Source: Escherichia phage BEU5. Taken from it: a stretch of DNA of 64,000 bases. A program made the translations under genes and the position numbers. Below, piece by piece: positions 51,862-56,611 of this stretch. The notes under the pieces are model-generated. The model saw only the letters and a list, made by a program, of their open reading frames with translations. It searched no databases and was not told the DNA's origin. The stretch lies in sequence record OM632664.1. The stretch is one strand, 5' to 3'. How positions within the stretch are numbered: the stretch's first letter is position 1; every line of letters begins with the position of its first letter.

Positions 51862-53454
51862 TCACACAATATATGAAGAGAGTGGGTTAACACTTCCAGT
51901 ATCATCACCATCATCCCACAATGGGTCACCTGATGTATTAACTGGAACCATACCTGCTTGTGGTTTCCACGGGTTCAGGTAGCCAAGCATTGAAATGGTA
52001 TCAATACAGTCATCCTTACCTTTAAGACCATTGATAGTGGCTAAACGAATTTGCCCCATAAAGAGTGTCATGATTGGGCTATCTTTCATCTCAGCAGGAA
52101 AATACATCTTACCAGCTTTGAACCAGGGAACCACGAGGTTAAACCTTGATAGCTTACTGGTTACAGGATGAATACCCGGTTGGCCTCCACGACTGGATGC
52201 AAAGTTAAAGAACACATTACGGTTAAGCATTTCCTTCTGAAGAAGAGAAATAAAACCACCTTGCTGTCCGGTAGTTTCTACACCAACTTGTTGTGGTTGG
52301 TATTCCTGAACCAGACGGAATAAGTCATCAAAGTTCTTATCCATAGTTTGACGGCAAGCAATACCATCTACCCAGAACCAGTCACCGTTAGAACCATATG
52401 CCCATACTGATATTACAGAGTAGTCAGATACCTGCTTCTCACTAGTAGCAAAGTCAGTAGTGATATAAAAGTTATAACAAGAACGTAGACGTAATAGCTG
52501 CGTACGGGAATACCATTTAATCTCTGAATCTTGAATCAGACGTTCATCTTCAGAGCTGATACGTAACATCAATTCCTGATAAAAGGATGCCAGCTTACCT
52601 GTCTTCAATGCCATCTGGTATTGGTCATTGATGTAGTCATAGGAGAAACGGTCTTCCCAAGCACCTTGAAATTCTTCTCGCGTACATGGGAATTTCTCAC
52701 ATACAGGCCATACGTTGACATCCCAAGCACCGGATTCAACTGCTTCAATAAGAATATCTTCCTTATTAAAGGGAGTACCATTAAAGATTACCTTACGTCT
52801 TGTTGGGTCGAGAGCATGGTTCACACCCTTATATACCGTGTCTTTAATGGCTTCCATTGATGTACGTGAGCGAGCATCATCATCACTAACTAAGTCATCC
52901 AGTACACACAGAACAGGACGTTTACCAAAAATCTTAGTACCGCGAAGACCCGTCTTAGCACCAAACATCTTCACACCAAGACGGTGACCTTCAGCATTTA
53001 CAAACTCAAGGTAGTTATCTGTGAAGGTAGCTTTAGGAATCCATTGTTGCAGGAATGGTGAATTGTTGTATCGAAACTCAATGTTCTTACGGGCAGACTT
53101 AACACCGTTATCCATAGAGTCAGACACATAAATCATTCCTTCTACTTTACCCAAGCTAGGTAGATGCCCAAACACTGCTAAGAACAAAGTAAAGTATTCC
53201 ATGAACAGAGTTGTCTTTGCTGCACCACGGAAACATAAGTTAGCAATGTACTGATTCTTACTGGTTATCTTATCCAGCATTTTTAAGTGAACAGGAGGGG
53301 TTTTGTTTGATTCCCCCTCCTTACCATTAACCAGCTTAATAAAGTTAGCAAAGGTCAGTGCAAACTCGGTTGGTATATACGTAGGGGTATTCAGAACGGA
53401 ATAGTCCACTTGGTCTAGCCATTCATCCAACTCCTGTTTAATTAGTTCAGACAT
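51862..53454 (-). CDS. terminase large subunit
   Basis: deviant Walker A FRGAAKTT, Walker B-like VLCVLDDLVSDDDA, C-terminal nuclease-like ITTDFATSEK...DYSVISVWA; start moved to ATG 53454 (GAGGA RBS); track start 53496 is TTG. Confidence 0.75.
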   Translation of the reverse strand: MSELIKQELDEWLDQVDYSVLNTPTYIPTEFALTFANFIKLVNGKEGESNKTPPVHLKMLDKITSKNQYIANLCFRGAAKTTLFMEYFTLFLAVFGHLPSLGKVEGMIYVSDSMDNGVKSARKNIEFRYNNSPFLQQWIPKATFTDNYLEFVNAEGHRLGVKMFGAKTGLRGTKIFGKRPVLCVLDDLVSDDDARSRTSMEAIKDTVYKGVNHALDPTRRKVIFNGTPFNKEDILIEAVESGAWDVNVWPVCEKFPCTREEFQGAWEDRFSYDYINDQYQMALKTGKLASFYQELMLRISSEDERLIQDSEIKWYSRTQLLRLRSCYNFYITTDFATSEKQVSDYSVISVWAYGSNGDWFWVDGIACRQTMDKNFDDLFRLVQEYQPQQVGVETTGQQGGFISLLQKEMLNRNVFFNFASSRGGQPGIHPVTSKLSRFNLVVPWFKAGKMYFPAEMKDSPIMTLFMGQIRLATINGLKGKDDCIDTISMLGYLNPWKPQAGMVPVNTSGDPLWDDGDDTGSVNPLSSYIV

Positions 53455-54139
53455 CAATAATATCCTCGTCTTCTCGAACCAGTGTGGAACCTGCAATTAC
53501 TTTAGTAGGTGTACCAGCTTCAATAGCTGCTTTCTGAGCTTCAGCCAACTGGGTTAGTGTATTCTTGAGTTCAGTCAATCCAGAGTTTTCTCTCAAATCC
53601 AGATTGATATTAGTAACAGCATCCTTCGGTTTCTGGAGGTGAGTAAGGATAGAGTTGGCAGCATCACACTGTACCTTCTCACTGGTAGCATTCTTCATGA
53701 GCCATGCCTGATGGTTCAATGCTTCCTGAAACAAATCCTGATTAACAATCCATACTGGAATCAGTGATTGTTCCATAATGAGGTTTACTAACTTACCTCT
53801 ATGGTAAGCAGATACATAAGCAGAGATGTCCTTCTCACTGGTTCCTCTTGCTACTAATTCAGCTTGTCTGTTGGGGAATGTTTTGAAATAAGCATCTTTG
53901 TTACTATACCCCATGTGTTTGTAAGTAACATATTGAACAGCATTAAGATAATCCTGGGTCTTAAACTTCCCATCCTTCATCACCCCAGCATAAGTCACAA
54001 AGTTATTTCTAATTTGCTCTGCTGCTGTCTGGTCTTGGGTCACATTGTTAATCATGTTTACCAGTTGGTCAGTAACACTGCTTTTAAACTGGGGAGGCAA
54101 TGCAGAAACAATGTCTTTCTTAGTCAGTAGTGTGCTCAT
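53447..54139 (-). CDS. terminase small subunit (putative, by position)
   Basis: 230-aa ORF immediately upstream of the large terminase gene at the head of the minus-strand block. Confidence 0.35.
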   Translation of the reverse strand: MSTLLTKKDIVSALPPQFKSSVTDQLVNMINNVTQDQTAAEQIRNNFVTYAGVMKDGKFKTQDYLNAVQYVTYKHMGYSNKDAYFKTFPNRQAELVARGTSEKDISAYVSAYHRGKLVNLIMEQSLIPVWIVNQDLFQEALNHQAWLMKNATSEKVQCDAANSILTHLQKPKDAVTNINLDLRENSGLTELKNTLTQLAEAQKAAIEAGTPTKVIAGSTLVREDEDIIDV

Positions 54140-54299
54140 AGTCTTCCTACAAATTATCTAGAGTGAAGAGGATTCTTTTCTTGGGGTTAGCACCCCTTGC
54201 AGAAACCTATACATAGATTTAGACTTTAGACTTTCTTTAGTCTCCTTACAATAGTAAGACAGAGACATGGGGAGCCTATTGCCCAAAGGAACCAGTAAC

Positions 54300-54608
54300 A
54301 TGAGGCTATTCTATAGTTTTGACGGTAATGACCAATGGAATGAGATAGACTTCAGTAAAATAGGTGGAGCTATCCCAGTTGGAGGGGCTATACCAGGTGA
54401 CCATATCTTATGTCACGATGAGGAGTCTTTCCATTACATCTCAGGTATGATGTTAATCAATAACGTCACTGGGTTTACTGTCCATAAACCTGCACCAGTA
54501 CGTGTCATTACCAAGCCTATCGAGGGTCTTGCATTCTTTACAAGAATACCTCAAAGTATCTCTATCAAACGACAGCGTGACGCCATCGAGATGACCGTGG
54601 TTGCTTGA
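54300..54608 (+). CDS. hypothetical protein
   Basis: ATG 54300 with AAAGGA RBS (track ORF 54267 has weaker context); 102 aa. Confidence 0.35.
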   Translation: MRLFYSFDGNDQWNEIDFSKIGGAIPVGGAIPGDHILCHDEESFHYISGMMLINNVTGFTVHKPAPVRVITKPIEGLAFFTRIPQSISIKRQRDAIEMTVVA

Positions 54609-54618
54609 TAAGCCATTG

Positions 54619-54657
54619 CCCGCCCAGGAGTTGGTGGCGGGAAACAGGGAACTGTTT
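54619..54657 (+). other. two adjacent hairpins downstream of the 54300 gene
   Basis: cccgcc...ggcggg (11-nt loop) followed by aaacag-ggaa-ctgttt. Confidence 0.3.
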
Positions 54658-54771
54658 GAATAACCACTTCAGCTACATTCACCTATCTCCAAGACACCTT
54701 TGTTATCTGCCATTGGGTGATGAGTAGTATCAGAGAGAACTGATTTAACAAACACACTCGGTATAGGAATT

Positions 54772-54799
54772 GGGAGCCATTTGGCTCCCTTTTTCTTTT
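54772..54799 (+). terminator. intrinsic terminator
   Basis: stem gggagcc/ggctccc with loop attt followed by TTTTTCTTTT; sits 20 nt upstream of the next ATG. Confidence 0.6.
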
Positions 54800-54818
54800 A
54801 TGAACCAAGGAGTTCTAT

Positions 54819-55184
54819 ATGAACATTCGTCCTAATGAAGTCTATGGTATCAACCTAGAGTACACTACAAACAAACCTGCTCTATTTCACTGTGGTTCCA
54901 CCAATCTATTCCATGCTATGTGTGGTAATACCAAACCTCTTTACTTACCTGAATCGGATGATACCCATGCTCTACTAGGTAACTGGTTCTTAGAAGGTAA
55001 AGACATTAGTACCATTCTTCTTGAACCAAGGAAGAAAGTGGCAATACCTACTAATGCATGGAATAACGAAGTCATTTACTTCCTGGCACCAAAAGGCTTT
55101 GAACCAGTGGTAGAACAGAATCACTTTAATCATGCAGTTACTTTCTACTTCAGAGAGACTTCAAAGTTATCTGCTTATAAATAA
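54819..55184 (+). CDS. hypothetical early-region protein
   Basis: 121-aa ORF with AAGGAG RBS. Confidence 0.45.
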   Translation: MNIRPNEVYGINLEYTTNKPALFHCGSTNLFHAMCGNTKPLYLPESDDTHALLGNWFLEGKDISTILLEPRKKVAIPTNAWNNEVIYFLAPKGFEPVVEQNHFNHAVTFYFRETSKLSAYK

Positions 55185-55192
55185 GGAAAGCT

Positions 55193-55321
55193 ATGTGGTA
55201 TATAACAGTTAAAGGTTTATCCGAACCAGTGATGATAGATAGCCTGGCCTTCATAGAAGTAGGTCATCCTATTCTTATAGAAGGTAAGTTGTATGAAGTT
55301 GTTAGTATTTATAAGAGATAA
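55193..55321 (+). CDS. small hypothetical protein (42 aa)
   Basis: ATG 9 nt after upstream stop with AAGGAAAG RBS; below the ORF-track length cutoff. Confidence 0.25.
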   Translation: MWYITVKGLSEPVMIDSLAFIEVGHPILIEGKLYEVVSIYKR

Positions 55322-55487
55322 ATAGGAAGTCTATTAGATAGATACCCTATAATTTTTTTCTTAGTGAAAATAGTCATAGTTACTTGTGAGTTTAGTATTT
55401 GGTGGGGCTACACCCCTTACACCATAAGCACCCCCCCCGGTCTTTACTAGTGTAGCCTTAGCCTACCCCACCTTGTACACGTTACAC

Positions 55488-55500
55488 GTTGCTTCGCAAC
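55488..55500 (+). promoter_or_regulatory. N4-type virion-RNAP hairpin promoter (P1-like): 5-bp stem, 3-nt loop
   Basis: GTTGC-TTC-GCAAC on top strand (template-strand loop GAA) followed by TTATGG; predicted +1 G 11 nt downstream of the loop centre, about 47 nt upstream of ATG 55552. Confidence 0.6.
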
Positions 55501-55551
55501 TTATGGACATGTTGTCCGTATCTTATCAATCAACTATTGGAGGCTAATACT

Positions 55552-55878
55552 ATGACTACTCAGGCTAACGTTCGTATGACTGTAGGAACTCTGTTGGGTA
55601 CTGTTAATGAAGCAGCAACTACTGTAGCTGATACATTCGGTACTGCTACTAAAGCAGTAGGTATGCTTAATCGTTATGTAACTAAACAAGCAGATAAACA
55701 AATCATTCGTGACAAATTAGAAATGCATGAGTTTACCAATAAACTTATTGAAGAAACTGCAATGCAAGAAGCTATTCGTCAGAAACAAATCTTAGACTTC
55801 TGCAAAGATGAACAAAACAAAGAATTGTTCTCTAATGCCTATGACCGTCTTAGCAAAATCTTAGCAGACTCTAAATAA
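55552..55878 (+). CDS. early protein, function unknown
   Basis: ATG 55552 with GGAGG RBS (track ORF 55489 starts at TTG inside the promoter hairpin); 108 aa, followed by terminator. Confidence 0.5.
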   Translation: MTTQANVRMTVGTLLGTVNEAATTVADTFGTATKAVGMLNRYVTKQADKQIIRDKLEMHEFTNKLIEETAMQEAIRQKQILDFCKDEQNKELFSNAYDRLSKILADSK

Positions 55879-55890
55879 TAACAAACAAAT

Positions 55891-55914
55891 GGAGGCTCCT
55901 CGGAGTCTCCTTTT
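55891..55914 (+). terminator. intrinsic terminator
   Basis: stem ggaggctcc/ggagtctcc (one wobble) with 4-nt loop, then TTTT. Confidence 0.6.
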
Positions 55915-55956
55915 ACATAGAACCGATAGTTCAATAACTATCTACTTTAAAGATAA

Positions 55957-55969
55957 GAAGCTCCGCTTC
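55957..55969 (+). promoter_or_regulatory. N4-type virion-RNAP hairpin promoter (P2-like)
   Basis: GAAGC-TCC-GCTTC followed by TTTTGG; template strand reads CATCCAAAAGAAGCGGAGCTTCTT with GGA loop, matching the N4 early-promoter hairpin as I recall it. Confidence 0.75.
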
Positions 55970-56082
55970 TTTTGGATGAAGTAATGCATCCAATCCTGTA
56001 TGAAATCTTAACCTTTTGTCTGGGATTACTTACCGACAAAGTAGTCTCAACTAATCAAAATCAACTATCTGGAGAGTACAAA

Positions 56083-56469
56083 ATGGCTATCACTACTTTT
56101 GCTAAAACCTTTGGTCAGGCTTCTACTAAAACTGAATCCAACAATGGTTCTCGCCCGAAAGCTCAGTTCTGGATTAACGTTGGCTATGTAGCTAATGAAG
56201 GCACTGAAGATGAACGTTTCATCTCTCTGCCTACTGGTATTCCACTGGATACTCAGGAGCATCTGCCAACCAATTCCTCTAACGAAGACTTCCGTGCAAT
56301 GCGTTGTGCACAGAACGATTTGTTAGACCAACTGATGGAATTTGCTAAGACTCTGGAACCAGGTCAGGAAGGAGTTATCTCACTGCAAGTTCAACTTCGT
56401 CGAGTTAAAGAAGAAGCTCCTGCTATCTCAGCAAGTGAGAATAAATATGCTCGTAAACTGACTTTCTAA
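56083..56469 (+). CDS. early protein, function unknown (N4 gp2-like activator is one possibility)
   Basis: ATG 56083 with GGAGAG RBS; track start 55972 coincides with the predicted transcription start and is rejected; 128 aa. Confidence 0.45.
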
Positions 56470-56476
56470 TCTCTAT

Positions 56477-56508
56477 AGGACTACCTTCGGGTAGTCCTTT
56501 TTAATTTT
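56477..56508 (+). terminator. intrinsic terminator
   Basis: perfect 9-bp stem aggactacc/ggtagtcct, loop ttcg, T-rich tail. Confidence 0.7.
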
Positions 56509-56611
56509 AACTATCTAAATACTAAAGTAGAGATTTTGACCCTTTTCGACGAAGGGATACTAAAAAGTAATGGATAGTTTGAGCAGATGTTTTAGAAGAA
56601 GGAGTATACAG

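Follow-up and report, generated by a model that had tools for sequence, protein, structure and literature searches.

Coliphage N4 carries a linear genome whose direct terminal repeats span 390–440 bp; the left end is unique, there are 3′ extensions, and the right end is heterogeneous, falling into six discrete families over about 50 bp (Ohmori 1988, as cited in PMC3715699, PMC3670811 and PMC3896407). These ends have much in common with those of the T7 type, the class that PhageTerm calls 'DTR short' (direct terminal repeat): the genome is linear and non-permuted, the repeats are short and exact, concatemers are cut at specific sequences, the repeat is duplicated, and the left end enters the cell first and carries the first promoters. 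N4 is unlike the T7 type in the heterogeneity of its right end, in the 3′ overhangs that have been reported for it, and in its first promoters, DNA hairpins that a polymerase injected with the genome transcribes from; no likeness in sequence to T7 packaging signals was noticed, though none was specifically tested for. PMC4496689 gives N4 three of these promoters, with a stem of 5–7 bp, a loop of 3 nt, a GC-rich heptamer centred at −11 and conservation from −17 to +1. Here we analyse positions 54140–55551 (the interval) of a 64,000 nt stretch of Escherichia phage BEU5 (sequence record OM632664.1; the whole stretch is referred to as the window), with emphasis on the predicted left genome end at position 55400 and on the cytosine run beside it. 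An earlier sequence-only reading had expected the physical termini and direct terminal repeats of an N4-like genome to lie in this interval.

Genome ends in the window

A megablast search of phage records with window positions 53400–56400 as the query returned Escherichia phages BEU44 and BEU13 at 100% identity, and the reference coliphage N4 (EF056009/NC_008720, genus Enquatrovirus) at 98.3% identity over the query. The match to N4 is split, as the first 2000 query bases correspond to record positions 68155–70153, where the record ends, and the remainder corresponds to the start of the record. When both record ends were read, N4 base 70153 fell on window position 55399 and N4 base 1 on position 55400; the record tail ...TTACTTGTGAGTTCAGTATT equals window 55380–55399, and the record head TGGTGGGGCTACACCCCTTACACCATAAGCACCCCCCCCCTG equals the window from 55400 onwards. 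Since the N4 record ends and starts at these adjacent bases, the interval contains the left physical end. The end motif is present once in the N4 record, and the terminal 16-mer TTGGTGGGGCTACACC is present once in the window, indicating a single collapsed copy of the repeat. The order of elements around the end is also that of N4, namely gp69, gp70 to gp72, the end, the early promoter P1 and gp1, and one difference is that N4 has C9 followed by TG where this isolate has C8 followed by GG. Judged by this identity, the window is a strain of coliphage N4, circularly closed by assembly across the ends of a linear genome.

Relatives with determined ends point to the same base. The terminal repeat of G7C, which was determined by run-off sequencing and is annotated, begins at the base aligned with window 55400. 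The KP8 record begins at the homologous base and has identical 404 bp copies at both of its ends. In IME11, read starts pile up at (G)TGGCTGGGGCTACACCC, which is homologous to 55400, and the repeat is 401 bp long. The 401 bp PhageTerm repeat of UE-S5b begins TGGCTGGGGCTAC, and both of its boundaries are homologous; PhageTerm repeats of 401 bp are found likewise in UE-S5a, M3, M6 and Mimir124. The four independent end determinations, in G7C, KP8, IME11 and UE-S5b, agree by alignment on one homologous base. In the other members of the Enquatrovirinae (G7C, IME11, KP8, UE-S5a, UE-S5b, M3, M6 and Mimir124) the left end is the same, lying 4–7 nt before GGGGCTACACCC, and a C7–C9 run and P1 are equally spaced from it, whereas the upstream flank has diverged and other small genes stand in place of gp70 to gp72 or add to them.

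At the right boundary, the last bases of the repeat are TTCTGCAAAGAT in KP8, ...AAAGATT in IME11 and ...AAGGATA in UE-S5b, all of which correspond to window 55798–55809, within gp1. As the right-end cut falls within gp1, the right-hand copy of the repeat would hold a truncated gp1; the repeat, which also contains P1, includes most of this gene. The range of 390–440 bp given for N4 corresponds to a right boundary at 55789–55839. Only the first 150 bp of the repeat are inside the interval, and the repeat runs about 260–290 bp beyond its right edge. The expectation of the sequence-only reading thus holds for the left end, and fails for the repeat, which reaches to about 55809 and is not contained.

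The boundary is more variable in some relatives. The Axy10 repeat (boundary at nt 404) stops 14 nt past the codons homologous to the gp1 codons TTCTGCAAAGAT of KP8 and IME11, and the repeat of G7C is 1160 bp long (boundary at nt 1160), nearly three times the length. A sequence shared at the right boundary was sought across genera, and none was found beyond the Enquatrovirinae. Such variation among relatives agrees with the heterogeneity that has been reported for the right end of N4. Two incomplete sister assemblies, BEU42 (OM632669, 66952 bp) and BEU51 (OM632672, 48949 bp), lose colinearity with the window at 55135 and 55374, respectively, a pattern that could be explained by breaks or mis-joins made during assembly at the terminal repeat.

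The terminus as such is ordinary: it is known N4 biology, and the ends were mapped experimentally decades ago.

Layout of the left end

An alignment of the left ends of eleven phages from four genera gave a common order of blocks after the end, comprising GGGGCTACACCC, a C7–C9 run followed by GGT, CCTACCCCACC with TACACGT repeats, a hairpin with a 5 bp stem and a 3 nt loop, TATGGACATGTYGTCC, and the ribosome-binding site of gp1. As aligned, the layout of the left end is modular and conserved. The 12-mer GGGGCTACACCC is invariant in Enquatrovirus, Gamaleyavirus, Kaypoctavirus and Moovirus, and exact matches to it are few: a search of 2.9 million IMG/VR contigs gave 15, of which 14 were on N4-like contigs of 70–74 kb and one was on a 41 kb contig. 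In the window the 12-mer forms part of a longer motif, GGGGCTACACCCCTT at 55404–55418, which starts 4 nt after the left end.

Further along, a 15-mer, CCTACCCCACCTTGT (55463–55477), is identical in Pseudomonas phage LIT1 (nt 68–82), a member of a different subfamily, and the related sequences CTACCCACCCCATG and ACTACCCCATG are found at the same relative place in Axy10, Pokken and Frozen.

A cytosine run at a conserved distance from the left end

The C8 run at 55431–55438, listed by the sequence-only reading, is indeed present and is a conserved element 31 nt after the left end. It is the sole C8 or G8 run in the window, against 0.44 expected, and 29 of 100 shuffled sequences contained at least one. 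A single C8 is not improbable, and the significance of the run comes from its conservation.

In isolates that share more than 97% identity over this region, the run is C8 in the window, C9 in N4, BEU13 and PMBT57, C10 in AlfredRasser and AL25, and C12 in SPSP; C13 was seen in one metagenomic KP8-like contig. Such differences in length could reflect real slippage or homopolymer sequencing error. Counted from the mapped or annotated left end, the run starts at nt 32 in N4 and G7C, 35 in KP8, 29 in LUZ7, 30 in LIT1, and 31 in Axy10, CB1 (a C6 run) and Pokken, so that a run of C6–C9 begins at nt 29–35 in all eight phages, which represent eight genera and whose flanking sequences are otherwise unrelated. 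In Pseudomonas phage LUZ7, a member of a different subfamily, the run has the form C7-GGT and the left end was mapped by run-off sequencing. The distance from end to run is fixed despite the variable length of the run, an argument for run and end being read jointly.

A wider comparison covered 80 IMG/VR loci encoding relatives of gp69, from 100% down to 42% identity, and took in the sequence beyond the gp69 start in the orientation of the window. Exactly one run of at least seven cytosines was found in 53 of the 80 loci, and runs of at least seven guanines in none; about 2.2 of the cytosine runs were expected from the background rate, which was taken from the opposite side of gp69 (seven runs of at least C7 or G7 in 689 kb). 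Six further loci have C6 in the same context. After near-identical sequences had been collapsed, 36 diverged contexts remained, with the consensus TA-Cn-GGT(A). In these contexts a second element, YAG[T/G]D, starts 36–40 nt before the run in 22 occurrences, compared with 0–5 in the other 5 nt bins within 45 nt; in the window it is TAGTA at 55393–55397, just outside the cut. In many relatives a YACCC(C) element peaks 23–38 nt after the run, and the first hairpin promoter mostly lies 44–59 nt after it (18–24 nt in some groups).

No run of at least six cytosines was found in some relatives with enough flanking sequence, namely loci L047/L020 (PhAPEC5), L065–L068, L090–L091 and L117, and PhAPEC5 retains GGGGCTACACCC though it lacks the run; such absences may reflect true loss, faulty assembly at the homopolymer or another kind of end. 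In the literature searched we found no description of poly-C or left-end sequences in N4-like phages, save for a table of IME11 reads, although this negative does not by itself prove that the element is undescribed. The strand-specific cytosine run 29–35 nt from the left end is, by comparison of sequences, a solid observation, and it is the only element reported here that may be new.

Both the run and YAG[T/G]D are conserved sequences at a fixed distance from the cut, as would be expected of a terminase recognition signal. We tentatively suggest, as an idea that has somewhat less than an even chance of being right, that the run (TA-C6..13-GGTA), together with YAGTR about 38 nt upstream, is a family-wide signal that fixes the left end in the Schitoviridae; terminase or a partner protein would recognize the G/C homopolymer and cut about 30 bp leftward of it, and the 12-mer GGGGCTACACCC would be an addition specific to the subfamily.

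Early promoters

The best-characterized functional element of the interval is the P1 hairpin (55488–55500), which the sequence-only reading had missed. The pattern GCTYCGCNNNNTNTGG has exactly three perfect matches in the window, at 55491, 55960 and 59949, all on the plus strand, and because N4 has three early promoters we equate these with P1, P2 and P3. The likeness extends to the stem, the loop, the heptamer GC-TYC-GC at −11, the G at +1/+2 and the presence of three plus-strand copies near the left end. We found no material difference from the N4 promoters for the virion RNA polymerase (vRNAP), and those of the window are the N4 promoters themselves. Their predicted starts, G55505, G55974 and G59963, are placed by the −11 rule.

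The stem of P1 shows compensatory change, being GTTGC/GCAAC in N4, G7C and KP8 versus CATGC/GCATG in IME11, pSb-1 and PD205, and the KP8 record annotates an 'early promoter' at the homologous place. P1 is within the terminal repeat in all relatives examined. The early region starts at the left end, 55400, with P1, and the start that the sequence-only reading had given for it was not confirmed.

Three side observations concern the surroundings of these promoters. The 5′ end of the predicted P1 transcript (55505–55517) could form a small hairpin, GGACA-TGT-TGTCC, which is kept, with T/C variation, in all aligned relatives. After the first promoter of L063, a distant relative from metagenomic data, there is a similar sequence, GGGCA-TGT-TGCCC. 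P3 is upstream of an open reading frame of 269 aa (60001–60810), the size of the N4 RNA polymerase II subunit gp15.

A model for the ends

Our data are consistent with a model in which an N4-type linear genome was closed into a circle by assembly and its two ends meet in the interval, and we put the probability of this reading at roughly 0.88. Rightwards, the region comprises the start of the gp69/gp68 operon, a divergent region with a stem-loop, gp70 to gp72, 78 nt of non-coding sequence and the left end at 55400. The positions of the ends follow from identity and homology, and we infer the way in which the cuts are made. Directly past YAGTR, and at a fixed distance of about 30 bp leftward of the poly-C/GGT element, terminase (gp68 with gp69) would cut concatemers and so produce the unique left end. 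A second cut, about 400 bp farther to the right and within gp1, would produce the right end, and the repeat would be duplicated through DNA synthesis in the manner of T7-type phages. The left end would then enter the cell first, and the injected virion RNA polymerase would use P1, about 95 nt from the end. The leftward late operon of gp69 and gp68 adjoins the terminus, as expected of N4-type ends.

Several points weigh against this reading. The 1160 bp repeat of G7C and the 14 nt shift of Axy10 relative to KP8 imply a right-end cut without one conserved sequence. The ends of the BEU5 isolate, in a window with one collapsed copy of the repeat, are placed by homology, whereas those of N4 were mapped experimentally. 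Neither gp68 nor gp69 has a Pfam match, and their terminase roles come from depositors' annotations. The recognition of the cytosine run by terminase, and the measuring of 30 bp, are deduced from conserved spacing, and the run is missing from the records of PhAPEC5 and of the L065–L068 group, so that it may not be indispensable.

Alternative explanations

The elements beside the end could serve another purpose than cutting. In the first alternative, the 12-mer, the cytosine run and the CTACCCCACC element would act in genome entry and early transcription: a virion or ejection protein, or the vRNAP, would grip the leading 30–40 bp through the G/C homopolymer, and with the end so anchored, supercoiling by gyrase could extrude the P1 hairpin, which is about 95 nt away. 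The left end is injected first, and the early promoters need gyrase-driven extrusion of their hairpins (PMC4496689), which would require a constrained end. The spacings from end to run (about 30 nt) and from run to first hairpin (about 44–59 nt) are kept in many genera, and the constant location of P1 inside the terminal repeat also speaks for such a role. P2 and P3, however, function without a nearby C-run, and the hairpins that follow the run by merely 18–24 nt in some groups make the spacing to the promoter less constant than that to the end. Nor is any protein known that binds the tract. We give this explanation perhaps one chance in a handful, and prefer the reading in which the run helps to fix the cut.

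A role in end replication appears improbable. In this case the bottom strand would fold back at its 3′ end (..GGGGTGTAGCCCCACCA-3′) as a primer, or the G-rich 3′ strand would form a telomere-like protection. An imperfect inverted repeat, TGGTGGGG/CCCC..ACCA, does exist in the first 25 nt, and the terminal 3′-ACCA can pair within it. When the strands of the left end were folded as DNA, however, the fold-back had a z of about 0 compared with shuffled sequences; the terminal 4 nt pairing is not kept in G7C or IME11; and a single homopolymer run alone cannot make a quadruplex.

It is similarly doubtful that the two GGGG...CACCCCTT sequences of the interval are copies of one functional motif, for example small-terminase sites at the cut and upstream of the terminase's own gene, where they could act in autoregulation. 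The sequence-only reading had treated them as one terminus motif with a spacer of 5 or 6 nt. Both are at the positions that it gave, with a spacer before CACCCCTT of 4 nt in copy 1 (GGGGTTAGCACCCCTT, 54183–54198) and 3 nt in copy 2 (55404–55418). The pattern GGGGN{3,6}CACCCC, when both strands were searched, occurred only at these two places in 64 kb, against 0.05 expected; both occurrences are on the plus strand, 1.2 kb apart. Copy 1 is located upstream of gp69, at a distance of 44 nt, and across the subfamily both sites are conserved. Against this stands the way in which the copies are conserved: copy 2 is invariant in sequence (GGGGCTACACCC), with its stem weakened to 3 bp in Gamaleyavirus, whereas copy 1 keeps the stem GGGGT/ACCCC and changes its loop. 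Nor is the G block separated from the C block by the same distance in the two copies or in different genera, and the search pattern was designed after both copies had been seen. Copy 2 is the conserved element beside the end, and copy 1 is a separate stem-loop upstream of gp69.

That there is no terminus, and that the interval is a mere divergent intergenic region with chance features, is scarcely credible: the C8 alone, the two hairpins after gp70 and the promoter-like sites (4 found by the scan versus 7.1 expected) are each not beyond chance, but the experimentally mapped N4 record starts and ends exactly at 55400/55399 and the four end determinations in relatives concur.

Genes and other features of the interval

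The coordinates of all features are collected in Table 1. The minus-strand gene that the sequence-only reading started at 54139 is gp69 in the annotation of N4. Relatives of gp69 were found by tblastn in 471 phage records, beside the large terminase, and several depositors label gp69 as the small terminase; gp68, the large terminase by depositors' annotation, comes next in the operon. The same reading had described the plus-strand reading frames as short and with weak starts. They prove to be the conserved genes gp70, gp71 and gp72, which match PHROG families and have good ribosome-binding sites, AAGGA or AAGGAG being read in the sequence 5–9 nt ahead of each ATG. Homologues of gp70 are present in G7C, JZBo1 and PD38, and gp71 and gp72 are the rightmost genes of the unique sequence. 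The PHROG families of gp69, gp70, gp71, gp72 and gp1 are all of unknown function, and a Pfam search gave no match for any of these five proteins, nor for gp68.

Within gp70, TTGGAGGGGCTATACC (54379–54394) shares 14 of 16 positions with the terminal 16-mer TTGGTGGGGCTACACC, and is the sole match in the window with up to three mismatches. It is situated in a GGAIPVGGAIPG insertion or duplication that has no counterpart in the gp70 of G7C, PD38 and JZBo1 and is variable in AL25. The insertion is specific to N4, and we treated this near-copy as probably due to chance.

Table 1. Features at and around the genome-end junction (window coordinates)
Feature	Position	Strand	Description
gp69	53447–54139	−	N4 annotation; phrog_2109, E 5e-102; first gene of leftward late packaging operon
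Imperfect palindrome / stem-loop	54172–54208		TTCTT-GGGGT-loop-ACCCC-TTG-AGAA; contains motif copy 1; 44–57 nt upstream of gp69 ATG
Tandem repeat TAGACTT ×3.1	54214–54234	+	Tandem Repeats Finder (TRF) score 35
gp70	54300–54608	+	N4 annotation; phrog_7213, E 5e-38; conserved, function unassigned
Intrinsic terminator	54772–54799	+	Between gp70 and gp71; GGGAGCCATTTGGCTCCC and T-run; 19 nt before ATG 54819
gp71	54819–55184	+	N4 annotation; phrog_9160, E 4e-48
gp72	55193–55321	+	N4 annotation; phrog_19797, E ~1e-30
Non-coding flank	55322–55399	+	78 nt, right-hand flank of left-end cut site; conserved in relatives (alignment); contains TAGTA 55393–55397
Direct terminal repeat	55400–~55809	+	Left end T55400; right boundary ~55809/55810 predicted from relatives with mapped ends
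Invariant 12-mer GGGGCTACACCC	55404–55415	+	Part of motif copy 2; 4–7 nt inside left end
Poly-C tract, C8 then GGT	55431–55438	+	Begins at nt 32 from left end; family-wide left-end element
CCTACCCCACC then TACACGT ×2	55463–55490	+	Alignment, TRF; CTACCCCACC element
P1, vRNAP early promoter	55488–55505	+	Hairpin GTTGC-TTC-GCAAC 55488–55500; GC-rich heptamer centre 55494; predicted start G55505
gp1	55552–55878	+	N4 annotation; phrog_5020, E 1e-46; first early gene
Early terminator	55891–55910 and T-run	+	Scan; z −5.3; beyond the interval
P2	55957–55969	+	Hairpin GAAGC-TCC-GCTTC; z −3.1; predicted start G55974; beyond the interval
P3	59944–59963	+	AAGCTGC-TCC-GCAGCTT; predicted start G59963

The divergent region between gp69 and gp70 contains motif copy 1 within a stem-loop. 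The stem GGGGT/ACCCC and its flanks GATTCTTTTCTT...CTTGAAGAA are kept in PD38, pSb-1, Moo19 and PhAPEC5 with a different loop; the layout at the homologous place in relatives is GATTCTTTTCTT-GGGGT-loop-ACCCC-TTGAAGAA, and it is degenerate in JZBo1. The fold of copy 1 is weak by itself (z −1.4 to −1.6 versus shuffles). We ruled out an intrinsic terminator here, as a T-run follows on neither strand. The stem-loop is probably an element of the 5′ untranslated region, or an operator, of the late packaging operon.

The tandem repeats that the sequence-only reading had noted correspond to TAGACTT ×3.1, as identified by TRF, and are small, local and not related to the terminus. They include ACTTTAG (54223–54229), which is invariant across the subfamily in the alignment with relatives. 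As a dispersed regulatory motif, for instance a middle promoter, TAGACTT was rejected, since its 20 matches in the window with up to two mismatches, compared with 29 expected, show no enrichment. The promoter scan gave a candidate plus-strand sigma-70-like promoter, TTTAGA(54225)-16-TACAAT(54252), which overlaps the repeat. On the minus strand, the scan of 54140–54300 found no site upstream of gp69; reading of the alignment by eye gave a conserved candidate −10 element, TAAAGT (TAAGT-type), which is the reverse complement of 54223–54228. The late promoters of N4, which are used by host sigma-70 polymerase activated by N4SSB, are known to resemble the consensus only weakly. The repeat thus overlaps candidate divergent promoters, whose function is suggested by their sequences.

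The terminator that the sequence-only reading had placed upstream of the ATG at 54819 was confirmed. Our scan gave a 7 bp stem with 6 GC pairs followed by TTTTTCTTTT, with a folding energy of −19 kcal/mol (z −4.4; none of 200 shuffles as stable), and in the record of phage AL25 a terminator is annotated at this position. The pair of adjacent hairpins that follows gp70 (54619–54657) is also present, at −18.2 kcal/mol, but shuffling gives sequences of similar stability (z −1.46; 18 of 200 fold equally well), and the pair is not beyond chance. A search of Rfam matched no family within the interval. Outside it, a sub-threshold match to L20_leader at 56402–56512 (25.5 bits versus a gathering threshold of 58.7, E 0.04) overlaps a terminator after gp2 (56477–56498), and is most likely chance.

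All the sequence features listed in the sequence-only reading exist at or near the places where it had put them, and its core idea, that a genome end lies in this interval, is right; only part of the evidence that it listed bears on the terminus. The features that lie outside the terminus, in the gp69/gp70 intergenic region and the gp70 to gp72 block, are motif copy 1, the hairpins, the TAGACTT repeat and the terminator.

Implications

The immediate use of the terminus assignment is in the correct annotation of such records and in the choice of the record start, as the genome is linear, with a terminal repeat of about 410 bp, and the assembly has collapsed it into a circle. If the cytosine run does act as proposed, the polymorphism in its length (C8–C12) could tune packaging or early events. 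Seen in eight genera with mapped or annotated ends and in most of the 80 diverse loci, the run gives a means of placing the left end of any N4-like genome or metagenomic contig from sequence alone. It also offers a concrete and testable candidate for the packaging or end-handling signal of the N4-like family.

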